DNA of 64,000 bases from a virus: the IMG/VR virus record IMGVR_UViG_3300021963_000077, positions 1 to 64,000 of that record. The stretch is one strand, 5' to 3'. Made by a program: the position numbers and the translations under genes. Within the stretch, counting starts at the first letter, position 1, and the number at the start of each line of letters is the position of its first letter. Positions 28,065 through 55,970 of the stretch are shown here, piece after piece. The notes below the pieces were generated by a model. That model had not been told where the DNA came from. It worked only from the letters and a program-made list of their open reading frames with translations, and did no database searches.

Positions 28065-28253
28065 TTATGATGGGAATTCTATAATCTGACCAGATTTCTC
28101 TGCTTCGTCAATCAAAATCAATGCTTCTTTGAGCAATTGACGATTTTTAGGAGTATCTGGTACTTCAACTTCTTCAAGTGTGTCATCAAACATCGCAGCC
28201 ATCAATATCTGCTGGTAGGTGTTGAAATCAACTTCTGATTTTTGATCTTTCAT
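28065..28253 (-). CDS. small acidic protein, candidate immunity/antitoxin
   Basis: 62 aa, ATGA-coupled directly after the zeta domain. Confidence 0.55.
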   Translation of the reverse strand: MKDQKSEVDFNTYQQILMAAMFDDTLEEVEVPDTPKNRQLLKEALILIDEAEKSGQIIEFPS

Positions 28254-53013: not shown

Positions 53014-55970
53014 TATCGCCTGTTCCCATAATCTCGCCATAACTGTTGAAGTCTGTTTAAATCAGCTGTTGATATTTGACCATTGTCAAAGCGCTCTAAA
53101 ATTCTCTGAACTATTTGAAATCCGCGATTTTTCCTAGCCCAATCAATTGATTGATTCTGCTGTCTTGTGAGAACCCTTTTGCCTATTTTTCCACTTTGCA
53201 GTTGCTTAAGCATGTCGTCTAGCCCTTGGCCAGATCTGGCCCCAAACTGTTTTGCGGTGTCATAGTCGAGTTCATACTGCTCAACACTGCCATCACCCAT
53301 ATTGAATATGACGCGGTTTGTCTGTGGGTCATATGCGGCATCCGATACTCGCCTGCTACCTCGAGTATCAAACTTCATTAAATAACTAGGAATTGCTGGC
53401 CTGTCTGGATTATCTTGACCCGATCCAGTCATTGACCCAGACACGGAGCGCTTGTTCTTGCGACTACGAAGAACGTCTAGGAAATCTTCCACGGCATTGG
53501 CTGGGCGAGGCTCCAAAACTGAGTTTGCGTGGATCCTCTCAGCTTCGCTTTCGCTAACTTTATGTTCTTCCGTCCTACCATTAATCAATGTAAAACGAGC
53601 AGTACCAGACTCTTTGTCGTAGGTAGCGTCTTTTAGGATTCTTGAACCACGCGTGTCAAATGATGGAGTTTTGTTATCTTTGCTCCATCCAAACTTTTCT
53701 AGGTGTTTTCTAGCCTCTTCGCTAAACCCTGAATATTGCGGCTTGGGGCGATTTGAAATAGATCCAGATACGCGAGGAGTTTTATCTTTTGGGTTATCAC
53801 CCTCAGTACGACGTTTCATAGAGGCAATTCGCATTTCAATTTGCCTAACTTGAGCACGTGTCATATTCATGCGTTGCGATACGTCATCGAGCGACATACC
53901 GTCCTCTGTGCGCATTTTCCAAATTTGATCACGAATTTTCTTGGCTTGGCGCATTTCAGATTGTCTCACCTCTTCACGCGTGATGCCAAAATTCTTCGCA
54001 ACTTCATCCAGCGACATGCCGCCTTCTGTGCGCATTTTCCAAATCTTCTCTGGTGTCGGCTTGCCCTTTGCCATTGAACCAGATATCCGCGACCCAACTG
54101 GTACTGGTCTTTCTGGCCGTGGCCCAGGCGTTGGCGTTGGTGCAGGGCTAGGAACCGATGGTCTGACTGGTGGGCGAATTGGCTCTCTTGCTGGCTCCGG
54201 AACCTTTCGCGGTGGATTCATTGGGGGCATCATGCGAGGCGCATTTGGGCGCTCAAATGATGTGCTGTCTTGCACTAAACCGTCTTCGTCCCCATCAATT
54301 GCATTAGGATCAAAACGATCTGTTGCCATTCTCCCCATACGTCTGAGTTTGCGACCAACAGCCTTCTCTTCTAAGAAGTTAATTGCCGTCAGTAGCGCCT
54401 CGTAGCCCTCTTCTGACATGGAGTCACTGTTTGGAACAACAAGACCATCTTCAAGACTCTTGACATCAAATCCATGATATTTAGCTACAGCACTAGCTAC
54501 CTCTAGCAATTCATCAATTTCGCTTTCGGATTGGATAAATAGATGAATTCCAGGGTTTTCACTCTTGAAAGCATCCCATGACGGCATGTCATCAATGACA
54601 TATGATTTCCCACCACCACATCCACAACCACAATCATCCTTAGCCGGCTTCATGGCCACTCCGCCAAATGCCGCTCCAAAGTCATCATTGTCGTCGCCTA
54701 CATATGCATTTCCTGGAGCGCTTTGTGGCTTGCCAACAGGCATGTAAATTGTCTCTGGCTTCACCGTTTCAGCATTTCCAAACATGAATTCGCCATCTTC
54801 GTAGTGATAGCCGACTCGGATTGTCTGCATATCTCCGAAGTCGTTCATGAGGTCAAAAATAACCATGTTTTTATCTGCTGTACGGATTTTTACTTTGCCG
54901 CCAAACCGTTGAGAAATAGCCTTGGCAAGGTCGTTAACACGCCCAAATGCTGGATTCATCTCCTCGTCGCCAGTATAGATACGGGATGTGTCGTAGCTAG
55001 GGTGGCCTTTTTTCTTCACATTCTGGTATCTCTCAAGGAGTCGCCGGCCTTTAGCTGCAAGCTCTGCTGCATCGGATGCATTTTTAGGAACTGGTTCACC
55101 CCATGCAGCGGCAGCTAGCGCTAGACGAGTCGGCTTGCCATTTTTGCCGACAAGTGGGCCAGATGGGTTTGTATAGAATCGCGTCAAGAACGAGCCTTTA
55201 CGACGCATTTTCTCTGGTGTGTCAGCTGGGCCCTTGACGCCTGGCTTTAGATTTGCGCCTTCCTTCTGCTTAAAGTACTTGCGCCCTGCTGGCGTCAGGC
55301 CACCCTTTGGATCCCTCAAATTTGCTGATTTGCCTTCAGGCTCAGAAGGCACGCAATTTGGCACCATTTTGCCGTTTTTGCCCTTCTTCATTCCTACCTG
55401 CTGGTAACCGGGCCAGCAAGGACTACCTGCCTTGCTTTCCGGATCGTCGGATTTGATTGAAATTGTGCCAGTCAGCTGATTGGCTCCGTGGAGAACTGGG
55501 GAAACCTCATAGAGTTCAACCTCTTTAAGGAGATTTGCTTGCTGAACTGGGTCAAATACTGCGTCAAGGGTCTTGTAACCAATTGACCACTCTTGCTCTT
55601 CGCCAAAGAAGGCAACATTATTGAAAGCCTCACGACCACGCTCAGAACGCAAATTAAATTGCACTCTTGCATAAAGTCCACCAATTCCGGCTTTTTTCAT
55701 CTTTAGCGGTAGGCGTGGATCATTCGGTGGCACCTCATATATTTCCAGAACCTTACCGATTGGCTCATTCCAGTTATGACCCCAAACAACTCTCGGCTTA
55801 CGTCTTTTAAGACTTGCTCCAAAACAGTTCGGGAGGCAAATATCGCCAACAGAATCTTTATTGCCGATGCCAGCAACGAAGCATTCAACGATGCCCTGCG
55901 CTTCGTCAACCCCGATTTGAGCTGGAATTGACTTGTATTCTGTTGCAAATAGCGATGATTGGTCAGACAT
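53013..55970 (-). CDS. HK97-type prohead protease fused to multiple accessory domains (985 aa)
   Basis: GNKDSVGD...WGHNWNEPIG...WSIGY...LYEVSPVLHGAN; then CWPGY..VPNC, GGLTPAGRKYF domain, DGDxDG tag, 2 sigma4-like HTH, 2 KTSC-like. Confidence 0.88.
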   Translation of the reverse strand: MSDQSSLFATEYKSIPAQIGVDEAQGIVECFVAGIGNKDSVGDICLPNCFGASLKRRKPRVVWGHNWNEPIGKVLEIYEVPPNDPRLPLKMKKAGIGGLYARVQFNLRSERGREAFNNVAFFGEEQEWSIGYKTLDAVFDPVQQANLLKEVELYEVSPVLHGANQLTGTISIKSDDPESKAGSPCWPGYQQVGMKKGKNGKMVPNCVPSEPEGKSANLRDPKGGLTPAGRKYFKQKEGANLKPGVKGPADTPEKMRRKGSFLTRFYTNPSGPLVGKNGKPTRLALAAAAWGEPVPKNASDAAELAAKGRRLLERYQNVKKKGHPSYDTSRIYTGDEEMNPAFGRVNDLAKAISQRFGGKVKIRTADKNMVIFDLMNDFGDMQTIRVGYHYEDGEFMFGNAETVKPETIYMPVGKPQSAPGNAYVGDDNDDFGAAFGGVAMKPAKDDCGCGCGGGKSYVIDDMPSWDAFKSENPGIHLFIQSESEIDELLEVASAVAKYHGFDVKSLEDGLVVPNSDSMSEEGYEALLTAINFLEEKAVGRKLRRMGRMATDRFDPNAIDGDEDGLVQDSTSFERPNAPRMMPPMNPPRKVPEPAREPIRPPVRPSVPSPAPTPTPGPRPERPVPVGSRISGSMAKGKPTPEKIWKMRTEGGMSLDEVAKNFGITREEVRQSEMRQAKKIRDQIWKMRTEDGMSLDDVSQRMNMTRAQVRQIEMRIASMKRRTEGDNPKDKTPRVSGSISNRPKPQYSGFSEEARKHLEKFGWSKDNKTPSFDTRGSRILKDATYDKESGTARFTLINGRTEEHKVSESEAERIHANSVLEPRPANAVEDFLDVLRSRKNKRSVSGSMTGSGQDNPDRPAIPSYLMKFDTRGSRRVSDAAYDPQTNRVIFNMGDGSVEQYELDYDTAKQFGARSGQGLDDMLKQLQSGKIGKRVLTRQQNQSIDWARKNRGFQIVQRILERFDNGQISTADLNRLQQLWRDYGNRR

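Follow-up and report, generated by a model that had tools for sequence, protein, structure and literature searches.

A shared DxDxDG tag on dissimilar proteins of an uncultured phage head locus as a candidate prohead-targeting leader

We analyzed a 64,000-nt stretch of viral DNA (positions 1 to 64,000 of the IMG/VR record IMGVR_UViG_3300021963_000077; hereafter, the window) and identified seven copies of a short peptide tag in six otherwise dissimilar proteins encoded at the phage head locus, one of them being the prohead protease. The sequences suggest that the tag is the core of an excisable prohead-targeting leader, carried by cargo that the head protease would cut apart, and we put the probability of this reading at about one half. 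We favor it because the tag is present on the protease, which must enter the prohead, because it is N-terminal to cargo and has cut-like flanks, one of which coincides with a word of the capsid precursor, and also because tags occur on genes outside the head operon and on effector-type enzymes. Conservation of the tag under selection and its linkage to head modules in two phage lineages are supported by the comparisons described below.

Proteins carried in the phage head and co-injected with the DNA are known for few model phages, and in uncultured phages their identification is gene-by-gene guesswork. If the tag is a loading label, it would list the injected arsenal of a whole lineage, including Zeta-type and HipA/CotH-like kinases, ADP-ribosyltransferases, NUDIX proteins, and helix-turn-helix (HTH) or sigma-like arrays; it is also a candidate means of getting foreign proteins into HK97-type capsids. 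The pattern is widespread, simple in sequence, and directly testable.

Seven copies of the tag in the window

The 23-residue tag core, [FY]D..A.DGD.DG[LF][VI]Q[DE].T.[FW][EQ]RP, is preceded by a basic leader. A six-frame regular-expression scan found exactly seven strict matches in the window:

31268..31336, minus strand: tag core 1, in the 1201-aa polyprotein; K-A-L-G start at 31373-31384
32778..32846, minus strand: tag core 2, in the 341-aa protein
34195..34263, minus strand: tag core 3, in the 917-aa polyprotein; AVTASMS behind it at 34171-34185
35494..35562, minus strand: tag core 4, in the 917-aa polyprotein; K-A-L-P start at 35587-35598 and RRIVGAMA behind it at 35434-35448
47205..47273, minus strand: tag core 5, in the 1445-aa polyprotein; K-A-M-P start at 47313-47324 and VGVASVS behind it at 47184-47198
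52541..52609, minus strand: tag core 6, in the HTH protein; reachable through a candidate frameshift only
54246..54314, minus strand: tag core 7, in the protease polyprotein; K-A-V-G start at 54354-54365

The carriers are thus the open reading frames (ORFs) of 1201, 341, 917 (two tags), and 1445 aa, the HTH protein, and the 985-aa protease, which are otherwise unrelated. This result agrees with the original prediction, made from the DNA of the window, which had placed seven copies in six dissimilar proteins and one of these copies in the protease itself. Two looser DxDxDG patterns recovered the same seven copies and none extra, and the entire 89.5-kb record, from which the window was taken, also holds seven only.

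In the 43-residue alignment of the seven copies 11 columns are invariant. The mean amino acid identity of the copies is 0.72, and the same codon is used at 0.50 of the identical residues. Since at 72% identity only half of the identical residues share codons, the copies are old paralogues kept by selection at the peptide level, and not recent DNA duplications.

No Pfam family covers the tag. The only library match is phrog_7924, a family with no assigned function, which hits the first tag of the 917-aa protein (E 7e-9), and the PHROG library yielded nothing else on the cargo proteins. The objection that the tag might be an already described family with another role thus found no support in these libraries. 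No description of the tag was found in the literature either, where word searches catch peptide motifs poorly, so that a prior description is possible.

An EF-hand loop has Asp at positions 1, 3, and 5, Gly at position 6, and an acidic residue at position 12. In the tag, loop positions 1, 3, 5, and 6 are invariant, position 12 is Thr, and an acidic residue is at position 10. Judged by these residues, the tag core appears to be an incomplete EF-hand (DxDxDG) loop, for which calcium binding is predicted. Run against the PDB, a profile of the tag found no significant match; its only hit, a polcalcin EF-hand, was weak (E 5.5).

The Asp-Pro pair ahead of the loop raises the question of whether the tag might cleave itself, as do FrpC and ApxIVA, upon calcium binding, maybe with formation of an Asp-anhydride cross-link, in calcium-rich water after lysis. 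The spacing D-P-x-x-x-D-x-D-x-D-G, leading from Asp-Pro into an incomplete EF-hand, is the same as in FrpC (D414-P415...D419, D421, D423, G424; PMC7078468; here and below, citations refer to the portions of the articles that were consulted), and D-P is present in 210 of 294 scored tags and nearly invariant in an alignment of 48 rows. We nevertheless consider this explanation improbable. The FrpC module comprises 177 residues with three more EF-hands and a Trp pair, whereas conservation of the tag stops ~17 residues past the loop; the remaining ~150 residues of the module are absent, homology is undetectable, and no chain of a self-processing module was retrieved by the PDB profile search at E<=10. 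In addition, two of the seven window copies have D-Q or D-S instead, and divergent tags of sister clades lack D-P while retaining K.LG and DGDGDG.

Cassette structure and candidate cleavage sites

The core is part of a longer cassette, composed of a K-[SA]-[LIV]-G start, a basic or Gly-rich stretch of ~10-15 residues, the core with the consensus [FY]-D-P-x-A-x-D-G-D-x-D-G-[LIV]-[VI]-Q-[DE]-x-T-x-[FW]-E-R-P, a short Pro-rich linker, and a second short motif. The stretch between the K-start and the core has a net charge of +2 to +6 in the seven window copies. The cassette has more structure than the original prediction described, with a cut-like K[SA]LG start, a second cut-like motif, and candidate frameshift control, described below.

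The start word is strongly enriched: K[SA]LG was observed 46 times, compared with 6.6 expected (maximum of 14 in 100 shuffles). A K[SAG][LIVM][GNPR] motif, mostly KALG or KSLG, is found at most 32 aa upstream in 62 of 78 unique tags, and 45 of 65 K[SA][LIVM]G sites lie at most 40 aa upstream of a tag core. The motif behind the tag takes the form R-x-[VI]-S-G-[SA]-M in the window, and other clades have G-[ML]-[RAS]-S. The seven occurrences of SG[SA]M in the window, all in tagged proteins, exceed the 0.24 expected (maximum of two in 500 shuffles), and G[ML][RAS]S occurs 173 times (14.8 expected) in 91 tagged ORFs and 40 times (13.8 expected) in 135 untagged ORFs of the same strand. The cut-like motifs of the window and the candidate cut site of the capsid precursor are:

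31208-31222, 30515-30529, 30488-30502, 29294-29308, and 29126-29140, minus strand: five R-x-[VIP]-[SA]-G-[SA]-[ML] motifs in the 1201-aa protein
54069-54083, 53754-53768, and 53427-53441, minus strand: three [VI]SGS[MI] motifs in the protease polyprotein
52508-52522, minus strand: [VI]SGS[MI] motif in the HTH protein
27587..27610, minus strand: EFK-SLNGG of the capsid precursor (aa 108-115), candidate maturation cut between K and S, identified by invariant columns

In a set of 235 proteins with 311 tags, 121 tags start within the first 60 residues (N-terminal), only three are C-terminal, and the other 187 are internal; many proteins open directly with the tag, and up to four tags per protein were seen among those scanned. 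Because the tags are N-terminal or internal and are flanked by cut-like motifs, the cassette, as far as its placement tells, is behaving as a leader of what follows, bracketed by two candidate cut sites.

The first of these sites can be compared with the capsid. In 15 relatives, E108, F109, K110, L112, and G115 of the capsid precursor are invariant within an otherwise variable stretch. In HK97, the capsid protein is cut at K103/S104, where its scaffold domain of 103 residues ends and L105 comes next (PMC10275583), and the first word of the tag, K-S/A-L-G, matches this K-S-L site type. As the start word of the tag is the same as the invariant capsid word EFK-SL-GG and resembles the HK97 site, we infer that K-[SA]L.G is a cut site of this protease family and that each cassette opens with one. 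Another capsid stretch, AAAAF-AAG, was tried as the maturation site and dropped in favor of the invariant EFK-SL-GG.

Enriched cut-like motifs on both sides of the tag would also be seen if it marked the places where polyproteins are cut, being a flexible calcium-binding joint between domains or a protease-recognition element and not an address. Entry into the head would then be provided by covalent linkage to the protease or to a conserved domain similar to the 128-aa product p128 (see below), directly behind which the tag is located in protease polyproteins, or by the region of an RCP..GG.FT..C motif found in some of the neighbouring proteins. The large untagged proteins of the same interval and the by-eye impression that tags follow the type of protein and not the genome fit such a joint as well. 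Several observations make it the less likely explanation, one that we would expect to hold in perhaps a minority of scenarios: the window has 13 cut-like motifs vs seven tags, so that cutting does not always require a tag; many proteins have just one body behind an N-terminal tag, with nothing upstream to separate; giant ORFs outside the head operon have one N-terminal tag; and a 23-residue core with 11 invariant positions exceeds the needs of a linker.

In DUF3721 proteins, the K-A-L of the first tag is preceded by the conserved stretch W-E-N-L-x-E-R-G-P-x-G-I-x-T-L-P-G-G-G-L-V-S, seen at aa ~75-105 of the 917-aa ORF and in many relatives.

Distribution of the tag

A profile built from the seven copies retrieved 800 representative proteins at E<=1e-3, 122 of them at E<=1e-10, among 1.84e9. 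At least one of the 800 (P0052) is a false positive with eight DGD.DG..CE repeats, putatively of the Excalibur type. In IMG/VR, at least 549 tag-bearing stretches of viral contigs were confirmed among the 597 pattern matches listed. A close homologue of the portal, protease, or capsid protein of the window (E down to 0) was present within the fetched +-10 kb in 54 of the 79 tag-seeded loci kept. In 185,579 prokaryotic genomes, one per species, four loci were confirmed, of which three are real, all on contigs of metagenome-assembled genomes, and the fourth is a weak match at chance level. One of these contigs has the order protease, two tagged giant ORFs, capsid.

A tblastn search of 50,697 GenBank phage records gave no match at E<=1 with the 43-aa tag; with a 100-aa tag segment it gave seven records, all at E>=2, which were treated as noise. 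Therefore no cultured tagged phage, and hence no virion proteome, was found in that collection. The distribution in the profile search, IMG/VR, species genomes, and GenBank suggests that the tag is essentially a mark of one uncultured phage lineage. The expectation that the tag would be confined to head loci was borne out in that it is essentially restricted to phages and linked to head genes, and failed in that it is not confined to the interval between protease and capsid.

The expected diversity of cargo was observed. In addition to the Zeta-like kinase and HTH arrays of the window, ADP-ribosyltransferase and NUDIX domains are carried by relatives, and the Pfam sets that recur in tagged proteins elsewhere are Peptidase_S78 with DUF6321, Zeta_toxin with DUF3721, ADPrib_exo_Tox, NUDIX, HTH arrays, and PG_binding_1. 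By domain content, the recurrent tag-fused cargo (Zeta_toxin, ADPrib_exo_Tox, NUDIX, and HTH arrays) is typical of injected effectors.

In the window, 24,992 nt separate the protease stop from the capsid start and contain 13 ORFs (8,177 codons), which mostly overlap or abut. The predicted run of about 25 kb of translationally coupled ORFs is therefore right as to its length and for most of the junctions, the exceptions being three gaps of ~200-240 nt. We fetched up to 10 kb on each side of 80 capsid-seeded loci with 72-94% identity. None of the 80 fetched stretches contains a protease or portal homologue; for 68 of the loci the sequence available ahead of the capsid gene was 3 kb or longer, and it too had none. 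As no protease or portal gene is near the capsid gene in these loci, the long insertion between protease and capsid looks lineage-wide.

In tag-seeded loci, a sample biased toward the tag, the protease ORF itself is tagged in 26 of 31 cases, and in four more the tag is in an overlapping -1 ORF; of 25 genes located directly ahead of the capsid gene, 22 are tagged and 17 are Zeta-like. Divergent forms of the tag, K.LG...IG...DGDGDGFTTG..GEDKIP and IDKDGDGKINDGTDDERSAP, were observed in sister clades, at loci L132 (7192-8442), L148 (7273-9849), L164 (8167-9849), and L137 (8800-9846). They were missed by the tag profiles, and the tag family is therefore wider than the 800 matches suggest.

Tagged genes are also found beyond the head operon. 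In two relatives (L041 and L051) they are downstream of the capsid gene. Giant ORFs (1,900-3,440 aa) that match no Pfam family and have one tag, at the N-terminus, are present in L024 (9863-19528) and also in L021, L027, L036, L050, L065, L070, and L077; on contig L063/L024 the giant tagged ORF is ~10 kb further downstream than the capsid gene and belongs to a different transcription unit. A label acting in trans therefore fits these genes better than a local linker does.

A second phage lineage has proteins of 80-200 aa with one or two N-terminal core tags and no basic leader (P0022, P0024, P0165, and P0179); phrog_7924 is this family of small proteins, some of which end in PG_binding_1. At locus L186 the genes of the portal, the protease-scaffold, and the capsid protein stand in this order, and directly behind the last one a 152-aa protein is encoded (9992-10450) that has the core tag at its very beginning. 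This is the usual position of decoration or head-completion genes, and together with the related small proteins that combine two tags with PG_binding_1 it would fit a calcium-dependent staple, which anchors surface (decoration-type) or structural proteins to the capsid, maybe on the outside of the shell, and is not ejected. The window lineage makes such an anchor a remote candidate, since its passengers are kinases, HTH arrays, ADP-ribosyltransferases, NUDIX proteins, and the prohead protease, which acts inside the shell, and since the cut-like motifs imply release from the anchor.

Expanded head loci are also seen in phages that lack the tag. The Gordonia phage DalanDe has a 1633-aa protease fusion directly ahead of the capsid gene, with no tag. 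The Actinomycetia phage DSL-LC01 (L085, OQ999401.1; from freshwater, cultured or assembled) matches the DUF5824-containing N-terminal segment of the window, again with no tag. Positions 52800-62669 of its record show a similar tagless expansion, with a 3,289-aa ORF and three ORFs named 'capsid maturation protease' between portal and capsid.

Candidate -1 frameshift at the cassette boundary

Tag core 6 (52541-52609) has no in-frame ATG, GTG, or TTG upstream, and the first ATG, at 52513, is downstream of the tag. A programmed -1 frameshift signal consists of a zero-frame heptamer X_XXY_YYZ, a structure 4-9 nt downstream, and an open -1 frame without its own start. The preceding ORF, p128, ends with GAT TTA AAA GCC TGA, and the -1 frame runs F-K-S-L-R-R... 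into the tag. The elements found at this place are:

52660..52666, minus strand: slippery heptamer T_TTA_AAA in the p128 frame, 4 nt before TGA; identical in L008
52619..52655, minus strand: GC-rich hairpin, 4 nt past the heptamer; RNA fold of -27.3 kcal/mol, z -2.3

Heptamer, hairpin, and an open start-less -1 frame are all present, as in programmed -1 frameshift signals, and the frameshift product is predicted on these grounds. In relative L008 the site is the same and the hairpin is more stable (-33 kcal/mol, z -3.6), a stability reached by 0 of 200 shuffles. In four other relatives (L023, L030, L031, and L033) the protease ORF ends with GAA AAA AAA GTC TGA, which contains the heptamer A_AAA_AAA, and the -1 frame continues K-K-S-L-R-G... 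into the tag and 950 further residues; in this class the downstream fold is not significant overall (z -0.3). Among the tag-seeded loci examined, start-less tags belong to these two classes only, both with a canonical heptamer at the junction of the p128-like domain and the tag.

By phmmer, p128 is homologous to a domain inside the protease polyprotein immediately ahead of the tag in L005, L032, L044, L046, L058, L060, L062, and L068, and the protease of the window holds a paralogous p128-like copy in the same position. The AlphaFold2 model of p128 (mean predicted local distance difference test score, pLDDT, of 52.8) was too poor for a fold search. The location of both types of frameshift sites exactly at the junction of the p128-like domain and the cassette suggests that frameshifting may regulate the ratio of the untagged product to the tagged, cargo-bearing one, which would be a form of dosage control of packaged cargo. 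The nearest named precedent for dosage frameshifting is of the Gag-Pol type.

Proposed role of the cassette

From the grammar of the cassette, its conservation, its distribution, the linkage to head modules, and the frameshift signals, we infer the following sequence of events. The cassette-bearing polyproteins, the S78 protease included, would be recruited into the assembling prohead through the cassette, whose most plausible docking partner would be the acidic, scaffold-like protein p482 encoded in the interval, or else the inner face or delta domain of the capsid protein. Once enclosed, the S78 protease would cleave the flanking motifs, so that the modules come apart and lose the label. The freed modules would remain in the head and be ejected with the DNA; in the window these would be the Zeta-type kinase, HTH/sigma-4 arrays, and HExxH proteins, and in relatives also ADP-ribosyltransferase and NUDIX domains. 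The -1 frameshift at the junction of the p128-like domain and the cassette would set how much untagged product is made per tagged one.

A number of observations weigh against this reading. The largest proteins of the interval that lack the tag (1984, 709, and 482 aa) could not use it, and therefore the tag is not the sole route into the head, if those proteins are packaged. A canonical tag is present within 10 kb upstream of the capsid gene in only 16 of the 68 capsid-seeded relatives with at least 3 kb upstream; divergent forms exist, and the requirement is not uniform. Some small tagged proteins have a peptidoglycan-binding domain and are encoded, as at locus L166 (5938-6429), among small genes 7 kb from a portal gene, where packaging into the head is not obviously needed. 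Tags group by protein type across genomes and not by genome, as judged by eye, which gives no hint that they co-evolved with a single partner particular to each genome. The two candidate cut motifs, before and behind the tag, are unlike each other, and the equivalence of capsid K110-S111 with HK97 K103-S104 is positional only, as the pairwise alignment starts 45 residues further on. The presence of tagged proteins in virions and cleavage at either motif are themselves deductions from sequence. A complex prediction for the capsid precursor (15 rows), a 52-aa tag segment (48 rows), and one calcium ion scored 0.00 in both runs, which had no controls, and nothing is drawn from it.

Comparison with known systems

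The closest functional analogy to the prohead-targeting leader is found in T4. The internal proteins IPI-III and Alt of this phage have an N-terminal capsid targeting sequence (CTS) of 10-20 residues, which binds the prohead core and is removed by gp21 (PMC7411985). The resemblance comprises a short leader N-terminal to several unrelated cargos (six proteins share seven copies, and 308 of the 311 tags are located N-terminally or internally), a protease-type motif behind the leader, host-modifying passengers (an ADP-ribosyltransferase domain in relatives, as in Alt), and basic tag leaders facing an acidic scaffold candidate. In contrast to the CTS, to which it has no sequence relation, the cassette is associated with a protease of the HK97/S78 family and not of the gp21 type, and it is ~40-50 aa long vs 10-20, with a DxDxDG loop and cut-like motifs on both sides; it is also internal in polyproteins and is present on the protease itself, and it is known from sequence alone.

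For SPN3US, propeptides of gp47, gp53, gp54, and the protease gp245 were proposed to target the prohead and then to be removed by the prohead protease (PMC7411985). In that account the propeptides have 111-130 aa and are not given as a shared motif, and that of the protease is C-terminal, whereas here one short cassette is reused.

Phage-type polyvalent proteins have 2-15 conflict-type domains and head-gene neighbours, and are predicted to be packaged, injected, and processed (Iyer et al. 2017, PMC5512222). The proteins of the window are similar in being very large, multi-domain, and encoded beside the portal/MuF gene, and in their Zeta_toxin, DUF5824, DUF3721, and HTH arrays, with ADP-ribosyltransferase, NUDIX, and HTH domains in relatives. 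They differ in that an in-built zincin (MPTase) was proposed to process polyvalent proteins, while here a shared tag is found, also on the S78 prohead protease; in the consulted text of PMC5512222, no shared address peptide and neither of the words 'calcium' and 'linker' was found. Two HExxH motifs were seen by inspection in the window, which has no Pfam MPTase and whose best LPD match is LPD26 at E 0.18.

By analogy, then, the system may work like the T4 CTS and internal proteins, and its proteins would fit the polyvalent type. It differs from both in the S78 protease family, the longer cassette with a predicted calcium loop, its internal reuse, the copy on the protease, and the candidate frameshift control.

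Targeting peptides of Family 1 encapsulins (consensus SDGSLGIGSLKRS, TVGSL) are mostly C-terminal and are not removed (PMC8346489). The likeness consists of a short peptide, diverse cargo, and an HK97-fold shell, and the leader K-A-L-G-S-N-L-G-S-L-A-R-G of relatives has, by eye, a similar Gly/Leu rhythm. The cassette differs from the encapsulin peptides in having no C-terminal SDGSLGIGSLKRS, the tags being C-terminal in only 3 of 311 cases. It is conceivable, and in our estimate quite unlikely, that the cassette serves an HK97-fold shell as a portable loading signal switchable by calcium, and so is a phage counterpart of the encapsulin loading peptides placed on hundreds of effector families. 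The basic leader would then hold cargo on the acidic scaffold in the calcium-poor cytoplasm; in calcium-rich water the DxDxDG loop would fold beside the Asp-Pro pair and aid the release of cargo or self-cleave inside the head, and -1 frameshifting into the cassette would determine how much tagged cargo is made. Were this so, the proteins injected by a widespread, uncultured phage lineage with probably actinobacterial hosts could be predicted from the tag alone, which would also provide a general handle on the loading of phage heads with foreign proteins.

Genes between protease and capsid

All genes of the locus are on the minus strand, and the large terminase gene is divergent (58578-59894). 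The protease polyprotein and the ORFs that follow it toward the capsid gene are:

53013..55970, minus strand: prohead-protease polyprotein, 985 aa; Pfam Peptidase_S78 E 3e-9, DUF6321 E 1e-27, Sigma70_r4 E 2e-10
55461-55892, minus strand: S78 domain of the protease polyprotein (aa 27-170), by Pfam
55101-55316, minus strand: DUF6321 of the protease polyprotein, by Pfam
54360-54710, minus strand: p128-like domain of the protease polyprotein, by paralogy with p128
52654..53040, minus strand: p128, 128-aa ORF, zero frame of the candidate frameshift; phmmer matches to proteases of relatives
51587..52666, minus strand: HTH protein frame with the tag, a cut-like motif, and about five HTH units; HTH_23 E 4e-16 and other HTH families
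49936..51384, minus strand: p482, 482 aa, very acidic, untagged; noted for its charge and its conservation after the protease polyprotein
45360..49697, minus strand: 1445-aa polyprotein with an RCP..GGQFT..C motif (49083-49142), two HExxH motifs, and a mid-protein tag, by inspection; no Pfam family
44959..45411, minus strand: 150-aa ORF, untagged, no family
44270..44962, minus strand: 230-aa ORF, untagged, conserved in relatives
42253..44382, minus strand: 709-aa untagged protein with an RCP..GGRFT..C motif (43843-43902) and a core resembling atypical kinases in an AlphaFold2 model compared by Foldseek
36299..42253, minus strand: 1984-aa untagged protein, N-terminal region conserved in relatives, no family
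35907..36308, minus strand: 133-aa ORF, untagged
33151..35904, minus strand: 917-aa polyprotein with the order DUF3721 (Pfam E 3e-8), tag, uncharacterised domain, tag, uncharacterised domain
32867..33163, minus strand: 98-aa ORF, untagged
31845..32870, minus strand: 341-aa protein with a tag at the extreme N-terminus, PRVSGAMS (32748-32762), and a DUF3721-containing body
28250..31855, minus strand: 1201-aa polyprotein with DUF5824 (31448-31615; Pfam E 2e-6), a tag, four further cut-like motifs, and a Zeta-toxin-type P-loop kinase (28442-28915; Pfam Zeta_toxin E 2e-22)

In the protease polyprotein the p128-like domain is followed by the tag, two Sigma70_r4-type HTHs, and C-terminal repeats. Of the labels that the original prediction had attached to the parts downstream of the tags, Zeta_toxin and the HTHs were confirmed by Pfam; the OGFr-, HicA-, and KTSC-like domains and the zincins have no Pfam match at E<=1, the HExxH motifs being visible. 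No mention of DUF6321, DUF3721, or DUF5824 was found in the literature.

The protein p482 has a net charge of -76, with one 40-aa block reaching -31, and relatives conserve it right behind the protease polyprotein. The last 75 aa of p482 match the end of the protease fusion that adjoins the capsid gene in DalanDe, and are shared also with the protease fusion of DSL-LC01. Because of this charge, its place after the protease polyprotein, and the C-terminus in common with a Gordonia phage protease fusion, p482 is likely a scaffold protein candidate. The basic leaders of the tags may possibly dock on it.

Conserved across the lineage, the 709-aa protein gave an AlphaFold2 model with a pLDDT of 67, and its first 160 residues are predicted to be disordered. 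The model core (aa ~230-600) matches CotH, HipA, CtkA, and PI3K kinases in Foldseek (E 1e-4 to 1e-3; template modelling score, relative to the target, 0.3-0.47), and so appears to resemble atypical kinases, at a modest score. In another phage, homologues of the untagged 230- and 709-aa proteins are fused and tagged (P0030).

Near their N-termini, the 709- and 1445-aa proteins share the motif R-C-P-x(5-7)-G-G-x-F-T-x(6)-C, of which the 1984-aa ORF has a looser form at aa ~170-200. In 20 homologues of the 709-aa protein its residues R, C, P, G, G, R, F, T, and C do not vary, and the motif may be a further element for association with the head. For the last 345 aa of the 1984-aa protein, an ADP-ribosyltransferase-like identity was considered and found no support, the best ESM Atlas score (0.78) being below the lead level.

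Source record, head genes, and host

The source record is a linear viral contig with an estimated completeness of 60%. The two structural genes that flank the protease and the interval are:

56064..58304, minus strand: portal fused to a MuF-like domain (746 aa); Pfam Phage_portal E 7e-50, Phage_Mu_F E 2e-9
26627..28021, minus strand: HK97-type major capsid protein with a conserved N-terminal scaffold (delta) domain of ~110 aa; Pfam Phage_capsid PF05065 E 4e-47, HK97 gp5 chains E 1e-58

Judged from the N-termini of relatives, the likely start of the capsid protein is the ATG at 27931. With a Peptidase_S78 domain (PF04586, E 3e-9) and an HK97-fold capsid protein that has a scaffold domain, the locus is a head module of the HK97 type.

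By capsid and protease, the closest cultured relatives are Gordonia phages, with a capsid identity of 46-48% (DalanDe and GMA6) and a protease identity of ~40%. A WhiB-family gene is present at 2612-2806 on the plus strand (42.9 bits, above the Pfam cut-off), and WhiB serves as an actinophage marker (bioRxiv 10.1101/670067). The Gordonia phage relatives and the WhiB gene make an actinobacterial host likely. Ten tRNA genes (Leu x2, Lys, Arg, Ser, Thr, Pro, Met x2, Val) are located at 7870-24353. The three ORFs immediately past the capsid gene have no PHROG family, and genes of ribonucleotide reductase, DNA methyltransferase, and thymidylate synthase are found on the same, minus strand at 18772-22518, 4-8 kb beyond the capsid gene.

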